From assembly GCF_057098645.1 (NCBI RefSeq), contig NZ_CM169472.1: 64,000 nucleotides of DNA; one strand, 5' to 3'. Of this stretch, positions 29,026-36,553 are shown in pieces. The position numbers and the translations under genes were made by a program. The notes beneath the pieces are model-generated. The model was not told where the DNA came from. It did not search any database and saw only the letters and a list, made by a program, of their open reading frames with translations. Position 1 is the first letter of the stretch. Each line of letters opens with the position of its first letter.

Positions 29026-30522
29026 TTAATCCTCTCGGGCAAAAAGTGCCTCTATAAAGTCGTCCGCCTTAAACGGACGCAAATCCTCAATACGTTCGCC
29101 GACACCAATGTAGCGGATAGGGATACCAAACTGGTCAGCCACCGAGAAAATTACCCCGCCTTTCGCCGTGCCGTCCAGTTTCGTTAGCGTGATGCCGGTT
29201 AAGCCAACAGCTTCGTGGAACAGTTTGGCCTGGCTTACCGCGTTCTGCCCGGTGCTGGCATCAATAGTCAGCATAACTTCATGCGGCGCTTCAACGTCGA
29301 GTTTCTTCATCACGCGGACGATTTTCTTCAACTCTTCCATCAGATGCGATTTGTTCTGCAGACGTCCGGCGGTATCGGCAATCAGGACGTCGATATTACG
29401 CGCTTTAGCTGCCTGAATGGCGTCGAAGATAACAGAGGCGGAATCCGCACCGGTATGCTGGGCAATCACCGGAATATTGTTGCGCTGACCCCAGACCTGA
29501 AGCTGTTCAACCGCTGCTGCACGGAAAGTATCGCCCGCCGCCAGCATCACCGATTTACCCTGCTGCTCAAACTGACGTGCCAGCTTACCAATCGTCGTGG
29601 TTTTACCCACACCGTTGACGCCCACCATCAGGATCACGAACGGCGTTTTACCTTCAACATTCAGCGGCTCATCGACTTTCGCCAGAATCTCGCCCATCTC
29701 TTCTTTCAGCAGGCCATAGAGCGCCTCGGCATCACGAAGCTGCTTGCGGGATGCGCCTTCCGTCAGATTGGTGATAATTTTACGTGTAGTTTCCACGCCC
29801 ACATCGGCGATCAACAACTGTTCTTCCAGCTCTTCAAACAGATCATCGTCGATTTTTTTACCGCGGAACAGGCTGATAAATCCGGAACCGAGATTTTCTT
29901 TGGTTTTTAACAGGCTGCGTTTCAGGCGCGCGAAAAAACCTTCTTTGGTCGGTTTTTCCTGCTCCTGAGCGATTTCTTCCACCGGCTGCTCTTCTTCTGC
30001 CGGAGGAACCACCATCACCGCCTCTTCTGCCGCTTCGGCAGCCAGCGCCTGTGTTTCCAGCTCTTCGTCGGTAATTTCTTCTTTAGCCGCTTCTTCTTCC
30101 GCCGCTTCGACAATCTCTACGGTTTCCGCTTCAGCCTGCCACTCTTCTGGCGAAACCTCTTCGGCGTTGACGTCTTCCGGCAACGGCAGCTCTTCACGCT
30201 CGATAGCCACTGGCTCCGGCATTTCTTCTACGACCGGTTCCGGCTGTGCAACGACTTCCGCTTCAGGCTGCGCTTTTTCACTTTCAGCTACCTGTTCAGT
30301 GACTTCCACAACTTCGGCAGCAAAAGTTTCCGCCTCGGCTTCAGTATGCGCCTGCGGCTGCTCTTCAACGGCTTGTTCAGAAGCCTTCACAGGCTCTTGC
30401 GCCTGAACGATTTCTTCTACAACCGGTTGTTCATTCTGAACTTCTGTCTCTTTTTCCGGGGTCTGCTCTTTTTGACCAAAGCCCAGCCAGGAAAAAAAGC
30501 CACGTTTTTTTTCTTTCGCCAT
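29026..30522 (-). CDS. ftsY: Signal recognition particle receptor
   Basis: 498 aa; acidic E/A-rich N-terminal domain, NG domain with GVNGVGKTT and DTAGR motifs. Confidence 0.9.
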   Translation of the reverse strand: MAKEKKRGFFSWLGFGQKEQTPEKETEVQNEQPVVEEIVQAQEPVKASEQAVEEQPQAHTEAEAETFAAEVVEVTEQVAESEKAQPEAEVVAQPEPVVEEMPEPVAIEREELPLPEDVNAEEVSPEEWQAEAETVEIVEAAEEEAAKEEITDEELETQALAAEAAEEAVMVVPPAEEEQPVEEIAQEQEKPTKEGFFARLKRSLLKTKENLGSGFISLFRGKKIDDDLFEELEEQLLIADVGVETTRKIITNLTEGASRKQLRDAEALYGLLKEEMGEILAKVDEPLNVEGKTPFVILMVGVNGVGKTTTIGKLARQFEQQGKSVMLAAGDTFRAAAVEQLQVWGQRNNIPVIAQHTGADSASVIFDAIQAAKARNIDVLIADTAGRLQNKSHLMEELKKIVRVMKKLDVEAPHEVMLTIDASTGQNAVSQAKLFHEAVGLTGITLTKLDGTAKGGVIFSVADQFGIPIRYIGVGERIEDLRPFKADDFIEALFARED

Positions 30523-32729: not shown

Positions 32730-34928
32730 ATGTCGACTCCTGACAATCACGGCAAGAAAGCCCCTCAATTTGCTGCGTTCAAACCGCTAACCACGGTACA
32801 GAACGCCAACGACTGTTGCTGCGACGGCGCATGTTCCAGCACGCCAACGCTCTCTGAAAACGTCTCCGGCACCCGCTATAGCTGGAAAGTCAGCGGCATG
32901 GACTGCGCCGCCTGTGCGCGCAAGGTAGAAAATGCCGTGCGCCAGCTTGCAGGCGTGAATCAGGTGCAGGTACTGTTCGCCACCGAAAAACTGGTGGTTG
33001 ATGCCGACAATGACATCCGTGCCCAGGTTGAATCTGCGGTGCAAAAAGCGGGCTATTCCCTGCGCGATGAGCAGGCCGCCGACGAGCCACAAGCATCGCG
33101 CCTGAAAGAGAATCTGCCGCTGATTACGCTAATCGTGATGATGGCAATCAGCTGGGGTCTGGAGCAGTTCAATCATCCGTTCGGGCAACTGGCGTTTATC
33201 GCGACCACGCTGGTTGGGCTGTACCCGATTGCTCGTCAGGCATTACGGCTGATCAAATCCGGCAGCTACTTCGCCATTGAAACCTTAATGAGCGTAGCTG
33301 CTATTGGTGCGCTGTTTATTGGCGCAACGGCTGAAGCTGCGATGGTGTTGCTGCTGTTTTTGATTGGTGAACGACTGGAAGGCTGGGCCGCCAGCCGCGC
33401 GCGTCAGGGCGTTAGCGCGTTAATGGCGCTGAAACCAGAAACCGCCACGCGCCTGCGTAACGGTGAGCGGGAAGAGGTGGCGATTCACAGCCTGCGCCCT
33501 GGCGATGTGATTGAAGTTGCGGCGGGCGGGCGTTTGCCTGCCGACGGTAAACTGCTCTCGCCCTTTGCCAGTTTTGATGAAAGCGCCCTGACCGGCGAAT
33601 CCATTCCGGTGGAGCGCGCAACGGGCGATAAAGTTCCTGCAGGAGCCACCAGCGTAGACCGTCTGGTAACGCTGGAAGTGCTGTCAGAACCGGGTGCCAG
33701 CACCATTGACCGGATTCTGAAACTGATCGAAGAAGCCGAAGAGCGCCGTGCCCCCATTGAGCGGTTTATCGACCGTTTCAGCCGTATTTATACGCCAGCA
33801 ATTATGGCCGTCGCCCTGCTGGTAACGCTGGTGCCGCCGCTGCTGTTTGCCGCCAGCTGGCAAGAGTGGATTTATAAAGGGCTGACGCTGCTGCTGATTG
33901 GCTGCCCGTGTGCGTTAGTTATCTCCACGCCCGCGGCGATTACCTCCGGGCTGGCAGCAGCGGCACGTCGTGGGGCGTTAATTAAAGGCGGTGCGGCGCT
34001 GGAGCAGCTAGGTCGTGTTACCCAGGTGGCGTTTGATAAAACCGGTACGCTGACCGTCGGTAAACCGCGCGTTACCGCGATTCATCCGGCAACGGGTATT
34101 AGTGAATCTGAACTGCTGACACTGGCGGCGGCGGTCGAGCAAGGCGCGACGCATCCACTGGCGCAGGCCATCGTGCGCGAAGCACAGGTTGCTGCACTCG
34201 CCATTCCCGCCGCCGAATCACAGCGGGCGCTGGTCGGGTCTGGCATTGAAGCGCAGGTTAACGGTGAGCGCGTATTGATTTGCGCTGCCGGGAAACATCC
34301 CGCTGATGCATTTGCTGGTTTAATTAACGAACTGGAAAGCGCCGGGCAAACGGTAGTGCTGGTAGTACGTAACGATGACGTGCTTGGTGTCATTGCGTTA
34401 CAGGATACCCTGCGCGCCGATGCTGCAACTGCCATCAGTGAACTGAACGCGCTGGGCGTCAAAGGGGTGATCCTCACCGGCGATAATCCACGCGCAGCGG
34501 CGGCAATTGCCGGGGAGCTGGGGCTGGAGTTTAAAGCGGGCCTGTTGCCGGAAGATAAAGTCAAAGCGGTGACCGAGCTGAATCAACATGCGCCGCTGGC
34601 GATGGTCGGTGACGGTATTAACGACGCGCCAGCGATGAAAGCTGCCGCCATCGGGATTGCAATGGGCAGCGGCACAGACGTGGCGCTGGAAACCGCCGAC
34701 GCAGCATTAACCCATAACCACCTGCGCGGTCTGGTGCAAATGATTGAACTGGCACGCGCCACTCACGCCAATATCCGCCAGAACATCACTATTGCGCTGG
34801 GGCTGAAAGGGATCTTCCTCGTCACCACGCTGTTAGGAATGACCGGACTATGGCTGGCGGTGCTGGCAGATACGGGTGCGACGGTGCTGGTAACGGCGAA
34901 TGCGTTAAGGTTGTTGCGCAGGAAATAA
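32730..34928 (+). CDS. zntA: Zn(II)/Cd(II)/Pb(II)-translocating P-type ATPase
   Basis: 732 aa; N-terminal metal-binding GMDCAAC, CPC motif (IGCPCALVIS), DKTGT phosphorylation site. Confidence 0.95.
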   Translation: MSTPDNHGKKAPQFAAFKPLTTVQNANDCCCDGACSSTPTLSENVSGTRYSWKVSGMDCAACARKVENAVRQLAGVNQVQVLFATEKLVVDADNDIRAQVESAVQKAGYSLRDEQAADEPQASRLKENLPLITLIVMMAISWGLEQFNHPFGQLAFIATTLVGLYPIARQALRLIKSGSYFAIETLMSVAAIGALFIGATAEAAMVLLLFLIGERLEGWAASRARQGVSALMALKPETATRLRNGEREEVAIHSLRPGDVIEVAAGGRLPADGKLLSPFASFDESALTGESIPVERATGDKVPAGATSVDRLVTLEVLSEPGASTIDRILKLIEEAEERRAPIERFIDRFSRIYTPAIMAVALLVTLVPPLLFAASWQEWIYKGLTLLLIGCPCALVISTPAAITSGLAAAARRGALIKGGAALEQLGRVTQVAFDKTGTLTVGKPRVTAIHPATGISESELLTLAAAVEQGATHPLAQAIVREAQVAALAIPAAESQRALVGSGIEAQVNGERVLICAAGKHPADAFAGLINELESAGQTVVLVVRNDDVLGVIALQDTLRADAATAISELNALGVKGVILTGDNPRAAAAIAGELGLEFKAGLLPEDKVKAVTELNQHAPLAMVGDGINDAPAMKAAAIGIAMGSGTDVALETADAALTHNHLRGLVQMIELARATHANIRQNITIALGLKGIFLVTTLLGMTGLWLAVLADTGATVLVTANALRLLRRK

Positions 34929-34936
34929 AGGTGTTG

Positions 34937-34959
34937 CCTGATAGCCTCTGGCTATCAGG
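34937..34959. terminator. Hairpin between convergent zntA and the small minus-strand ORF (possible bidirectional terminator)
   Basis: CCTGATAGC-CTCTG-GCTATCAGG perfect 9 bp stem; U-tract is weak on both strands. Confidence 0.35.
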
Positions 34960-34960
34960 G

Positions 34961-35278
34961 TTAGTGCTGGGCCGGGAACGGTGGCATGGTCAGGAAAGTG
35001 TAATATAGCGCTAACATCAGAATGACGGAGATAACACAACATGTAGCAACCAGGCGGGACGTGAATGATGGCCTTTTGAACATCAACCACAGGGCATAAG
35101 CAAGCCCGACGCCGTTAAGTAAAGGTAAAAAAATCATTAGCCAGAGCCAACCACAGGCAAGTACCCCCAGCCATCCCCCCACGGCGATTAAAACAGGCAT
35201 CAGCCAATTGGGGGCGAACATCGCGAACAATCCCAGCAATCCCAGCAATCCCAGGCAAACAGGAATTAAATAATCCAT
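34961..35278 (-). CDS. Hypothetical small membrane protein (105 aa) with an internal 3x9-bp tandem repeat
   Basis: Three predicted TM segments; repeat CAATCCCAG x3 (plus strand 35223-35249) encodes LGLLGLLGL; weak SD. Confidence 0.35.
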   Translation of the reverse strand: MDYLIPVCLGLLGLLGLFAMFAPNWLMPVLIAVGGWLGVLACGWLWLMIFLPLLNGVGLAYALWLMFKRPSFTSRLVATCCVISVILMLALYYTFLTMPPFPAQH

Positions 35279-35298
35279 TTGTGTATTCCATTACACTT

Positions 35299-35337
35299 GC
35301 TTGCCGGATGCGGCGTGAACGCCTTATCCGTCCTACG
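35299..35337. repeat. REP element
   Basis: GCCGGATGCGGCGTGAACGCCTTATCCGTCCTAC matches the REP consensus; a second palindrome CCCCTCGCCCCTCAGGGGAGAGGG lies at about 35376-35400. Confidence 0.5.
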
Positions 35338-35422
35338 TACCGGTTTCAAGCAGCAACATTGAGTGCGATCGGTCCCCTCGCCCCTCAGGGGAGAGGGTTA
35401 GGGTAACAGTCCGTGATCCACC

Positions 35423-35668
35423 TTAACCACCTTTACGAATCAAATAGCGATAAGGCAGTCCATCCGTCTCTTTGGCAACCAGTTCGTGTTCCATAAAGGT
35501 ACAAAACCCAGGGATATCGCGGGTCGTCGCCGGATCGTCAGCAATAATCAGCAACGTTTCACCTGGCTGCATATTGCGCACTGTTTTGCGCACCATCATT
35601 ACGGGTTCCGGGCAGCGCAGGCCAAGTGCGTCGAGTGTGTGGTCAGGGCTGGAAAAGAGATCGGTCAT
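35423..35668 (-). CDS. tusA: Sulfur carrier protein TusA
   Basis: 81 aa; conserved [17 protein letters not shown] Cys-Pro-x-Pro motif. Confidence 0.9.
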
Positions 35669-35887
35669 TTTCTTCTCATCACATAAAAAACGGCGCTAGT
35701 TTACGCCCTGTGAGTCCGTAAGCAAACCAGGTTAACGATTGCGTGAAAATTAACCATTGCATTGTCAACGTAAAGCAGTATCATGCGGCGGCTCGAAAAA
35801 AGGGTAAGCACGTTATTATGTTAAGGTAACAGACGTGTCGTACGTATTGGGTTCCCTCACCCCAATGGTTAATCAAAAAGGTACAAT

Positions 35888-36553
35888 ATGAACGTTTTCT
35901 CGCAAACTCAACGCTATAAGGCGTTGTTCTGGTTATCGTTATTTCATCTGCTGGTGATCACCTCCAGTAACTATCTGGTTCAGCTTCCCGTCTCCATTTT
36001 TGGTTTCCATACCACCTGGGGCGCGTTTAGCTTCCCGTTTATTTTCCTTGCTACCGACCTGACCGTGCGTATTTTTGGCGCACCGCTGGCCCGTCGTATC
36101 ATCTTTGCGGTGATGATCCCCGCTTTGCTGATCTCCTACGTCATCTCGTCGCTATTCTATATGGGTTCCTGGCAGGGATTCGGCGCACTCGCCCACTTCA
36201 ACCTGTTTGTCGCCCGTATCGCCACCGCCAGTTTCATGGCCTACGCGCTGGGGCAGATCCTCGACGTGCACGTTTTTAACCGCCTGCGTCAGAGTCGCCG
36301 CTGGTGGCTGGCACCGACAGCGTCCACACTGTTCGGTAACGTCAGCGACACGCTGGCCTTTTTCTTCATTGCCTTCTGGCGTAGCCCGGATGCCTTTATG
36401 GCTGAACACTGGATGGAAATCGCGCTGGTCGATTACTGTTTCAAAGTGTTAATCAGTATCGTTTTCTTCCTGCCAATGTATGGCGTATTACTCAATATGC
36501 TGTTGAAAAGACTGGCAGATAAATCCGAAATCAACGCTTTGCAGGCGAGTTAA
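35888..36553 (+). CDS. yhhQ: Queuosine-precursor transporter family membrane protein
   Basis: 221 aa polytopic membrane ORF. Confidence 0.8.
   Translation: MNVFSQTQRYKALFWLSLFHLLVITSSNYLVQLPVSIFGFHTTWGAFSFPFIFLATDLTVRIFGAPLARRIIFAVMIPALLISYVISSLFYMGSWQGFGALAHFNLFVARIATASFMAYALGQILDVHVFNRLRQSRRWWLAPTASTLFGNVSDTLAFFFIAFWRSPDAFMAEHWMEIALVDYCFKVLISIVFFLPMYGVLLNMLLKRLADKSEINALQAS

Follow-up and report, generated by a model that had tools for sequence, protein, structure and literature searches.

A small hydrophobic open reading frame with an in-frame 9-bp coding repeat between zntA and tusA in Escherichia

Several described families of small membrane proteins resemble the protein considered here in one respect or another. 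Members of the SMR/EmrE family (PF00893) likewise have about 105–110 residues and four transmembrane helices, and a conserved glutamate in the first helix (TM1) is their hallmark. The MrpF/MnhF/PhaF subunit of Na+/H+ antiporters (NCBIfam NF009243) is likewise a small, hydrophobic, multi-helix protein, and YeeE/YedE proteins of the 'TsuA' type (PF04143), which are approximately three to four times the size of our protein, are membrane partners of a TusA-like carrier. With regard to repeats, MLVA-type in-frame coding VNTRs differ in copy number between close isolates, consistent with slipped-strand mispairing, whereas classical contingency loci carry out-of-frame repeats whose variation switches genes on and off.

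The locus described here was found in a window of 64,000 nucleotides (the whole stretch of contig NZ_CM169472.1, assembly GCF_057098645.1, that was analysed), in which a small open reading frame (ORF) lies between zntA and tusA and contains a 9-bp tandem repeat. Its protein does not belong to the SMR/EmrE family, having no Pfam match at E <= 1 and no membrane-embedded acidic residue (its only acidic residue is D2, at the N-terminus). MrpF was the only NCBIfam match, but its score of 14.6 bits (E = 0.04, over 47 residues) is far below the cut-off of 95, and with no mrp operon nearby this is a compositional similarity only. Like the TusA-like carriers' membrane partners, the ORF adjoins a TusA-family gene, and it does so across genera; membership of YeeE/YedE was nevertheless rejected, as the protein has no Pfam match to Sulf_transp, is a quarter to a third of their size and has no cysteine conserved across the core of its own family. 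The repeat behaves like those of MLVA-type loci in that its copy number differs between close isolates, and differs from contingency repeats in being present in one to three in-frame copies within a transmembrane helix.

The gene itself is not new to the databases, where hundreds of RefSeq genomes list it as a "hypothetical protein". The RefSeq/UniProt entry WP_000385059.1 (A0A066QZ38_ECOLX; 102 aa, E. coli O145:H28) is the same gene, WP_000385055.1, WP_032303952.1 and WP_250777490.1 are allelic forms, and orthologues from E. albertii are also deposited (e.g., AHE60355.1); these entries differ from the window protein only by repeat copy number and allelic substitutions. The exact 105-aa protein of the window has been deposited as well (EFA4758806.1 and others). 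None of the deposited entries carries a name, family or functional annotation, and a literature search for five protein accessions found no paper citing them.

Layout of the zntA–tusA interval and expression signals

The window is E. coli DNA. Its gene order, yhhN-zntA ... tusA-yhhQ-dcrB-yhhS, is that of E. coli K-12, and the proteins encoded on both sides of the ORF are 98.8–100% identical to their K-12 counterparts. The initial annotation placed a 105-codon minus-strand ORF in this interval, and such an ORF is indeed present with exactly the implied translation (Table 1). Its boundary at 34937 is, however, not the end of the reading frame, which lies at 34961, but the first base of an adjacent hairpin, nor does the ORF fill the spacer as had been stated: it takes up 318 of the 494 bp between the zntA and tusA stop codons, the remainder consisting of the hairpin, a REP element and a second dispersed palindromic repeat.

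Table 1. Positions of the features at the zntA–tusA interval, numbered along the window
Feature	Positions	Strand	Details
zntA (P-type Zn/Cd/Pb ATPase)	32730–34928	plus	convergent with the ORF
Hairpin	34937–34959		inverted repeat, 10-bp arms, 3-nt loop; 2 nt past the ORF TAA, 9 nt past the zntA stop
Small ORF	34961–35278	minus	105 codons + TAA, ATG start; from the ORF listing
Homopolymer tracts within the CDS	35127–35180	minus	T7 35127–35133, G5 35164–35168, G6 35175–35180
Perfect tandem repeat CAATCCCAG x3	35228–35254		TRF and repeat search
REP-type palindromic element	35262–35333	minus	core ~35294–35328; between tusA and the ORF
Weak Shine-Dalgarno core GGA	35287–35289	minus	9 nt upstream of the ATG (-11 to -9)
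Second dispersed GC-rich palindromic repeat GGTCCCCTCGCCCCTCAGGGGAGAGGGTTAGGG	~35353–35406		K-12 has a copy at the same site
tusA (sulfur carrier)	35423–35668	minus	same strand as the ORF, upstream neighbour

The hairpin separating the two convergent genes folds as minus-strand RNA with an energy of -17.8 kcal/mol (z = -2.6) and is probably a shared or bidirectional transcript-end hairpin; no T-run directly follows it on either strand. It is kept in other Escherichia loci in which the ORF abuts zntA (L003, L004, L007, L009 and L011), and in one of these, L007, the loop is flipped (TCT instead of AGA). On the other side of the ORF, the REP element belongs to a type present in tens of copies per E. 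coli genome and was matched by the Rfam naRNA4/REP model below threshold (32.7 bits against a gathering score of 59.5); the Rfam search at the locus returned nothing else. The number of REP copies at this site varies among strains and the length of the tusA–ORF spacer follows it, ranging from 136 to 315 bp, with the exception of L004, where the spacer reaches 453 bp because of an extra paralogous gene described below. Within the coding sequence, the G6 and T7 tracts are the sites at which rare database variants lose the frame, for which mutation and sequencing error are both possible causes.

The weak Shine-Dalgarno (SD) sequence noted initially was confirmed: it consists of GGA only, with a duplex energy against the anti-SD of -3.3 kcal/mol. 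It had been taken as a sign that the frame might be spurious, which does not follow, since the values for tusA (-2.7) and yhhQ (-3.9) are comparable and a weak SD is therefore no argument against the gene. A GGAAT motif is conserved upstream of all homologues, and the distant ones described below have a stronger SD, AAGGAATG (-5.9 to -7.3). No sigma-70-like promoter was found in the region 34700–35950, which includes the tusA–ORF spacer, and because no promoter of its own was detected we propose that its transcript most likely comes, at a low level, from tusA transcription reading through the REP element; translation would then rely on the weak GGA Shine-Dalgarno sequence. Its expression is thus probably low.

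Coding status, predicted structure and distant homologues

When the 494-bp spacer was shuffled, 7.4% of the shuffled sequences held an ORF of at least 105 codons, so the length of the frame alone is within chance and it is the comparison between genomes that speaks for a gene. Interruption of the frame in most relatives had been named beforehand as grounds for rejecting it; instead, the frame is intact in all 12 fetched loci, which represent several allele groups of E. coli and five other lineages of the genus, and every indel that distinguishes intact alleles has a length divisible by 3. Nine distinct alleles together have 73 variable sites, distributed 22/15/36 by codon position (p = 0.009). 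The pooled pN/pS is 0.40 in the ORF frame and 0.68–1.96 in the other frames, except for the antisense frame with which it has the wobble position in common (0.41). Synonymous changes make up 35 of the 79 changes from consensus against an expected 25–30% (p = 1e-4 to 5e-3), and no stop codon was observed, although approximately 4.7% of random substitutions would create one.

This constraint is weak in comparison with that on the neighbouring genes, for which pN/pS was computed from the same genomes and amounts to 0.049 in tusA, 0.024 in yhhQ and 0.065 at the 3' end of zntA; the pN of the ORF is 3–13 times that of its neighbours. It is also unevenly distributed, with values of 0.27 in the C-terminal 57 codons and 0.71 in the N-terminal 45, the N-terminal third being near neutral. 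Synonymous divergence is lower in the ORF (pS 0.15) than in the neighbours (0.20–0.29), which complicates the reading of the pN/pS ratio. Between the window and Escherichia sp. E1V33, for example, dS is 0.056 in the ORF and 0.19–0.24 in the flanks, and some other cross-species pairs behave likewise. This is a hint that recombination has passed the segment between Escherichia lineages, E. coli having perhaps re-acquired it from cryptic clades and not retained it, but some non-coding constraint could be the cause instead. Around the indel that distinguishes the window from K-12, divergence between the two shows no clear gradient.

The encoded protein is very hydrophobic (GRAVY +1.38), its only charged residues being D2, K68, R69, R75 and H105, so that the stretch K68-R69...R75 forms the only charged loop. 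AlphaFold2, run on a shallow alignment of 23 sequences, places four helices at residues 4–21, 24–42, 44–68 (with a kink near P52) and 72–97, in agreement with hydropathy; the best model reached a mean pLDDT of 83 (other four models, 66–73) and a pTM of 0.66. The protein thus probably has four transmembrane helices. Hydrophobic segments had been noted initially, correctly, but counted as three, a number that did not hold, given that residues 1–67 are continuously hydrophobic and four helices are predicted. By the positive-inside rule, the KRPSFTSR loop would be cytoplasmic and both termini periplasmic. A lipoprotein signal at C8 was ruled out, there being neither a basic n-region nor a lipobox (IPV|C).

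Searches of family libraries gave little. Apart from the results already mentioned for Pfam and NCBIfam, PADLOC returned no match, the only PHROGs hit (E = 0.047) was to a family without assigned function, and a Foldseek comparison of the AlphaFold2 model with the PDB gave a best E of 1.6, to generic helical bundles. When 1.84 billion representative proteins were searched exhaustively with a profile, one convincing relative was found outside Escherichia, P0039, a protein of 83 aa which is 36% identical over residues 24–105 and has the same hydropathy pattern and the same C-terminal FPAQH. Two further candidates were discarded, P0040 as a low-complexity repeat protein and P0041 as a frameshifted fragment, and a search seeded with P0039 recovered only P0039 itself.

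The P0039 gene was found on a metagenomic contig of enterobacterial origin (L013), separated by 36 bp from the tusA gene upstream of it; TusA of this contig is 89% identical to that of E. coli and has its nearest relatives in a JGI genome and in Superficieibacter. No such gene is called after tusA in Superficieibacter or Scandinavium, nor is one among the called genes of L014, the closest relative of L013, in which the tusA–zntA spacer is 217 bp. A third family member was found in the Escherichia locus L004, where a P0039-like paralogue, split by a frameshift at a T8 run, immediately follows tusA; it occurs in none of the 5426 complete E. coli genomes. These P0039-type homologues (83–84 aa) are 36–43% identical to the ORF protein over the three C-terminal helices, and like the ORF they follow tusA, carry the same GGAATG ribosome-binding motif and have in common with it a convergent neighbour of 162 or 165 aa. 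They differ in the absence of TM1, in a stronger SD, in their distance of only 27–36 bp from tusA and in having no REP element between.

Taken together, codon-level selection, conservation of the frame across the genus and the distant homologue argue for a real gene subject to purifying selection of moderate strength. The initial description of a small polytopic membrane-protein gene is in this respect borne out, by the intact frame in relatives, the excess of synonymous changes and the 36%-identical homologue located after tusA; the conservation and selection check it had called for gave the figures reported above (12 of 12 loci intact, pooled pN/pS 0.40).

Repeat copy number, distribution and history of the locus

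The three perfect 9-bp copies encoding LGLLGLLGL are present as initially described, but 5 nt to the right of the position given (35223–35249). On the coding strand, the unit CTGGGATTG occurs three times in frame and specifies LGL x3 at residues 9–17 (L9–L17), inside the predicted TM1. A TRF scan of the whole window found it to be the only perfect repeat of at least three copies with a unit of 7–12 nt, and 50 shuffles contained none. TM1 is the least constrained helix and is missing in both P0039 and the third family member, so the repeat sits in the least constrained, lineage-specific part of the protein.

The suggestion that copy number could vary proved right: one, two and three copies occur among strains, in at least three independent allele backgrounds. 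The clearest case is E. coli O145:H28, which has no mismatches to the window over 3.3 kb but one 9-bp unit fewer (two copies against three). The exact allele of the window is absent from the collection of 5426 complete E. coli genomes; its exact 105-aa protein is, however, found on 38 contigs of draft assemblies, one draft locus being 100% identical to the window over 3.3 kb, and the three-copy allele also occurs in a different flanking background (L019). The two-unit, 102-aa form dominates, with at least 1000 contigs against the 38 just mentioned and against 6, 2 and 1 for the remaining forms: respectively, a different 105-aa protein, P0001, which corresponds to the L008 allele plus one LGL; the one-unit, 99-aa P0003; and L009, in which the CTGGCATTG unit of the L012 allele is duplicated. 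Copy number has thus expanded independently at least three times and contracted once, in each case with the frame preserved.

Given its perfect units, its variation between otherwise identical sequences and its recurrence in independent backgrounds, the repeat is an ordinary coding VNTR. Outside E. coli, in E. albertii and the other lineages, the two units generally differ from each other, reading CTGGCATTG CTGGGATTG (LAL-LGL), and the 9-bp repeat probably arose when such an ancestral pair was turned into two perfect copies; in the allele group of the window it is this perfect pair that permits slippage. The variation itself is observed; as to mechanism, replication slippage would add or remove one LGL unit, approximately one helical turn, in TM1. 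As the unit is a multiple of three, copy changes never switch the gene off, and the variation is best read as a near-neutral length polymorphism.

Alignment with E. coli K-12 MG1655 shows that the 422-bp segment 34931–35352, comprising hairpin, ORF and REP element, is replaced there by about 10 bp. With the ORF alone as query, matches were obtained in 317 of the 5426 complete E. coli genomes (5.8%), always chromosomal and in single copy, so that approximately 94% are without it; identity is 95–99% in 50 of the positive genomes and 90–95% in 265. All of the 60 matches sampled evenly down the ranking overlie a CDS annotated as "hypothetical protein". An origin from a mobile element was ruled out, there being no match in phage records and only one in the plasmid collection, to a record of 4.9 Mb, the size of a chromosome. 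When one genome was scanned for each GTDB species, five ORF loci came up, all in Escherichia (E. albertii, E. whittamii, Escherichia sp. E1V33, Escherichia sp. MOD1-EC7003 and one labelled E. coli), and in all five the ORF is intact and syntenic (tusA -> ORF <- zntA). Look-ups of exact sequences extended this to several hundred contigs from E. albertii and, for intact forms of 102 aa, to more than 2400 from E. coli.

A further gene, of 165 aa, lies between the ORF and zntA in E. albertii and Escherichia sp. MOD1-EC7003, and P0039 is followed by a convergent gene of 162 aa; neither has a sequence match in Pfam, NCBIfam, PADLOC, PHROGs or the PDB. Since this 162-aa neighbour and the 165-aa gene of E. 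albertii are 64% identical, the older arrangement was tusA -> small membrane protein <- 165-aa gene <- zntA. The ORF thus appears to be the remnant of a former insert of two genes between tusA and zntA which is still complete in E. albertii; ORF-positive E. coli have lost the 165-aa gene, in whose place a hairpin remains, and about 94% of E. coli have lost both.

Interpretation and alternatives

As a whole, the data are with high probability best explained by a genuine, chromosomally inherited accessory gene restricted to Escherichia, encoding an inner-membrane protein of about 100 residues with four helices, the first of which is varied by slippage. The gene appears to be maintained in E. albertii and several other Escherichia lineages and to be dispensable in most E. 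coli. A somewhat different reading, which overlaps with this explanation and which we regard as unlikely, is that of a decaying relic, a former gene now near-neutral in E. coli and heading for loss, with the repeat polymorphism as a symptom. It would account for the absence of the ORF from 94% of complete E. coli genomes, the earlier loss of the partner 165-aa gene in ORF-positive E. coli, the near-neutral N-terminal codons (pN/pS 0.71) and the elevated pN relative to the neighbours, the frameshifted and truncated forms in databases and an SD weaker than that of the distant homologues. It fits poorly with the C-terminal 57 codons (0.27) and the significant excess of synonymous changes, with the frame being intact not only in the 12 fetched loci but also in thousands of contigs, several hundred of them from E. 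albertii, and with the stops, of which about three would be expected under neutrality from at least 73 variable sites and none was seen. That the ORF is spurious, i.e., non-coding DNA (for example the tusA 3' UTR or a REP-associated spacer) which is open by chance, we consider very improbable. The weak SD, the missing promoter, the frequency of equally long ORFs in shuffled spacers, the lack of a family match in any library and a synonymous divergence below that of the neighbours, as if all positions were constrained, may be cited in its favour, but such DNA would account neither for the periodicity by codon position and the pN/pS, lowest in the ORF frame and approached only by the wobble-sharing antisense frame, nor for indels of intact alleles confined to multiples of 3. 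Still less would it account for a protein homologue, with the same hydropathy and C-terminal motif, that is syntenic in another genus, or for the third, paralogous copy in L004, and no Rfam family apart from REP was found.

The repeat might also be viewed as a contingency (phase-variation) switch, in which slippage alters expression or function selectably and reversibly. Copy changes have occurred independently in at least three allele backgrounds, by both expansion and contraction, and the three-copy allele is present on dozens of contigs, one of them with different flanks; this idea nonetheless has hardly any probability in our view, as the unit lies inside the coding sequence and the 99-, 102- and 105-aa forms are all in frame, only one to three copies are seen with the two-copy form dominant, and the repeat occupies the least constrained helix, one that the distant homologues do not have. 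Slippage rates are, moreover, expected to be low with only two or three units. To a membrane-damaging toxin or holin-like peptide (a type I toxin or a prophage remnant) we likewise attach next to no credence: its small size, extreme hydrophobicity and patchy strain distribution would suit such a role, but the gene lies in neither a prophage nor another mobile context, copies on plasmids or phages were not found, it gave no significant PHROG or PADLOC match, and neither an antisense RNA family nor an antitoxin-like ORF accompanies it. With four transmembrane helices and about 100 aa the protein is larger than type I toxins, it does not have the charged C-terminal tail typical of holins, and its inheritance across the genus is vertical and syntenic.

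If, as we prefer, the ORF is a genuine accessory gene, we would guess, with little confidence, that its product is a small subunit which assists or modulates a membrane complex and that it may be connected with TusA, the one ground for this connection being the adjacency to tusA conserved across genera. No cysteine column is invariant across the family core once P0039 is included, which argues against a direct role in sulfur relay. A more far-reaching proposal may be formulated, in which the three branches (the Escherichia form with four transmembrane helices, P0039 with three, and the L004 paralogue) constitute an unnamed tusA-adjacent family of dedicated membrane partners or anchors of TusA, the Escherichia form having gained an N-terminal helix whose length is adjusted by LGL slippage with functional consequences; we consider this very improbable.

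In practical terms, annotations can retain the ORF frame, which is supported by comparison even though its SD is weak, and the 9-bp repeat could be of minor use for typing within ORF-positive lineages such as O145:H28. The overall significance is small, and the ORF would be of interest only if its protein is a functional partner of TusA. With regard to the biology of the genus, the locus illustrates the stepwise loss, within Escherichia, of a two-gene accessory insert between tusA and zntA.

Sequences flanking the small ORF

The spacer between tusA and the ORF ranges from 136 to 315 bp across the window and loci L003-L012, other Escherichia loci that carry the ORF, because the number of dispersed palindromic REP elements differs, from one to about five copies. 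In the window it holds one REP and a second GC-rich palindromic repeat, the latter being common to K-12. On the 3' side of the ORF there is a hairpin whose 3-nt loop is inverted between lineages (AGA in the window vs TCT in L007, on the ORF coding strand) while the stem is retained, with a stem mismatch in the L004 version.

An out-of-frame ATG upstream of the ORF opens an overlapping frame, and it was at this ATG that gene callers began the database variants P0023, P0025, P0028 and P0029, which carry homopolymer frameshifts. Besides the 9-bp repeat of the ORF, TRF reported a single other tandem repeat in the window (see table).

Coordinates of the features discussed
Feature	Location	Strand	Details
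Tandem repeat	window 30076-30108		15-bp unit TTCTTCTTCAGCCGC, 2.2 copies, 88% matches (TRF)
Hairpin 3' of ORF	window 34937-34959; L007:4310-4344		
58-codon overlapping frame	window 35115-35291	-	MEYTNGLFNS...
Extra N-terminal helix	window 35225-35278		ORF residues 1-18
tusA-ORF spacer	window 35279-35422		
Out-of-frame ATG	window 35289-35291	-	13 nt upstream of ORF start
Second family member	L004:3575-3828		E. coli strain SCPM-O-B-8794, GTDB species representative
165-aa gene	L006:4369-4866	-	E. albertii
165-aa gene and related loci	L005:4310-4989; L013:688-1176 (-)		

Divergence of the ORF and a second family member

In pairwise comparisons of the window with L003-L011, mean pS was 0.153 for the ORF at 34961-35278, lower than the 0.20-0.29 obtained for tusA, yhhQ and zntA, and in some cross-species pairs the ORF was far more similar than its flanks, which together suggest that this segment may have been swapped among Escherichia lineages by recombination, or that it is under some additional constraint.

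At L004 a second member of the family, with three helices and resembling P0039 (the 83-aa distant homologue from metagenomic contig L013), lies 27 bp past tusA behind a good Shine-Dalgarno sequence (AAGGA), the ORF itself lying further downstream. A frameshift at a T8 run interrupts its reading frame; the reconstructed protein has 84 aa and shares 43% identity with P0039 and 35% with the window ORF over residues 24-92 of the latter. None of 5426 complete E. coli genomes carries a copy. When the extra N-terminal helix of the ORF (MDYLIPVCLALLGLLAIF in most alleles) was compared with the N-termini of P0039 and this paralogue, it resembled that of the short homologues, MKYAMPVFLALVSWLALM (9/18 identical, counted by eye); the helix, a very short and very hydrophobic segment, could stem from a partial duplication, either internal or tandem.

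The neighbouring 165-aa gene

A 165-aa gene, for which Pfam, NCBIfam, PADLOC, PHROG and PDB all gave no match, separates the small ORF from zntA in Escherichia sp. MOD1-EC7003 and in E. albertii. It shares 64% identity with the convergent neighbour of P0039. That such a gene is shared beside both the ORF and P0039 implies that a two-gene insert is ancestral and that E. coli has since lost part or all of it.
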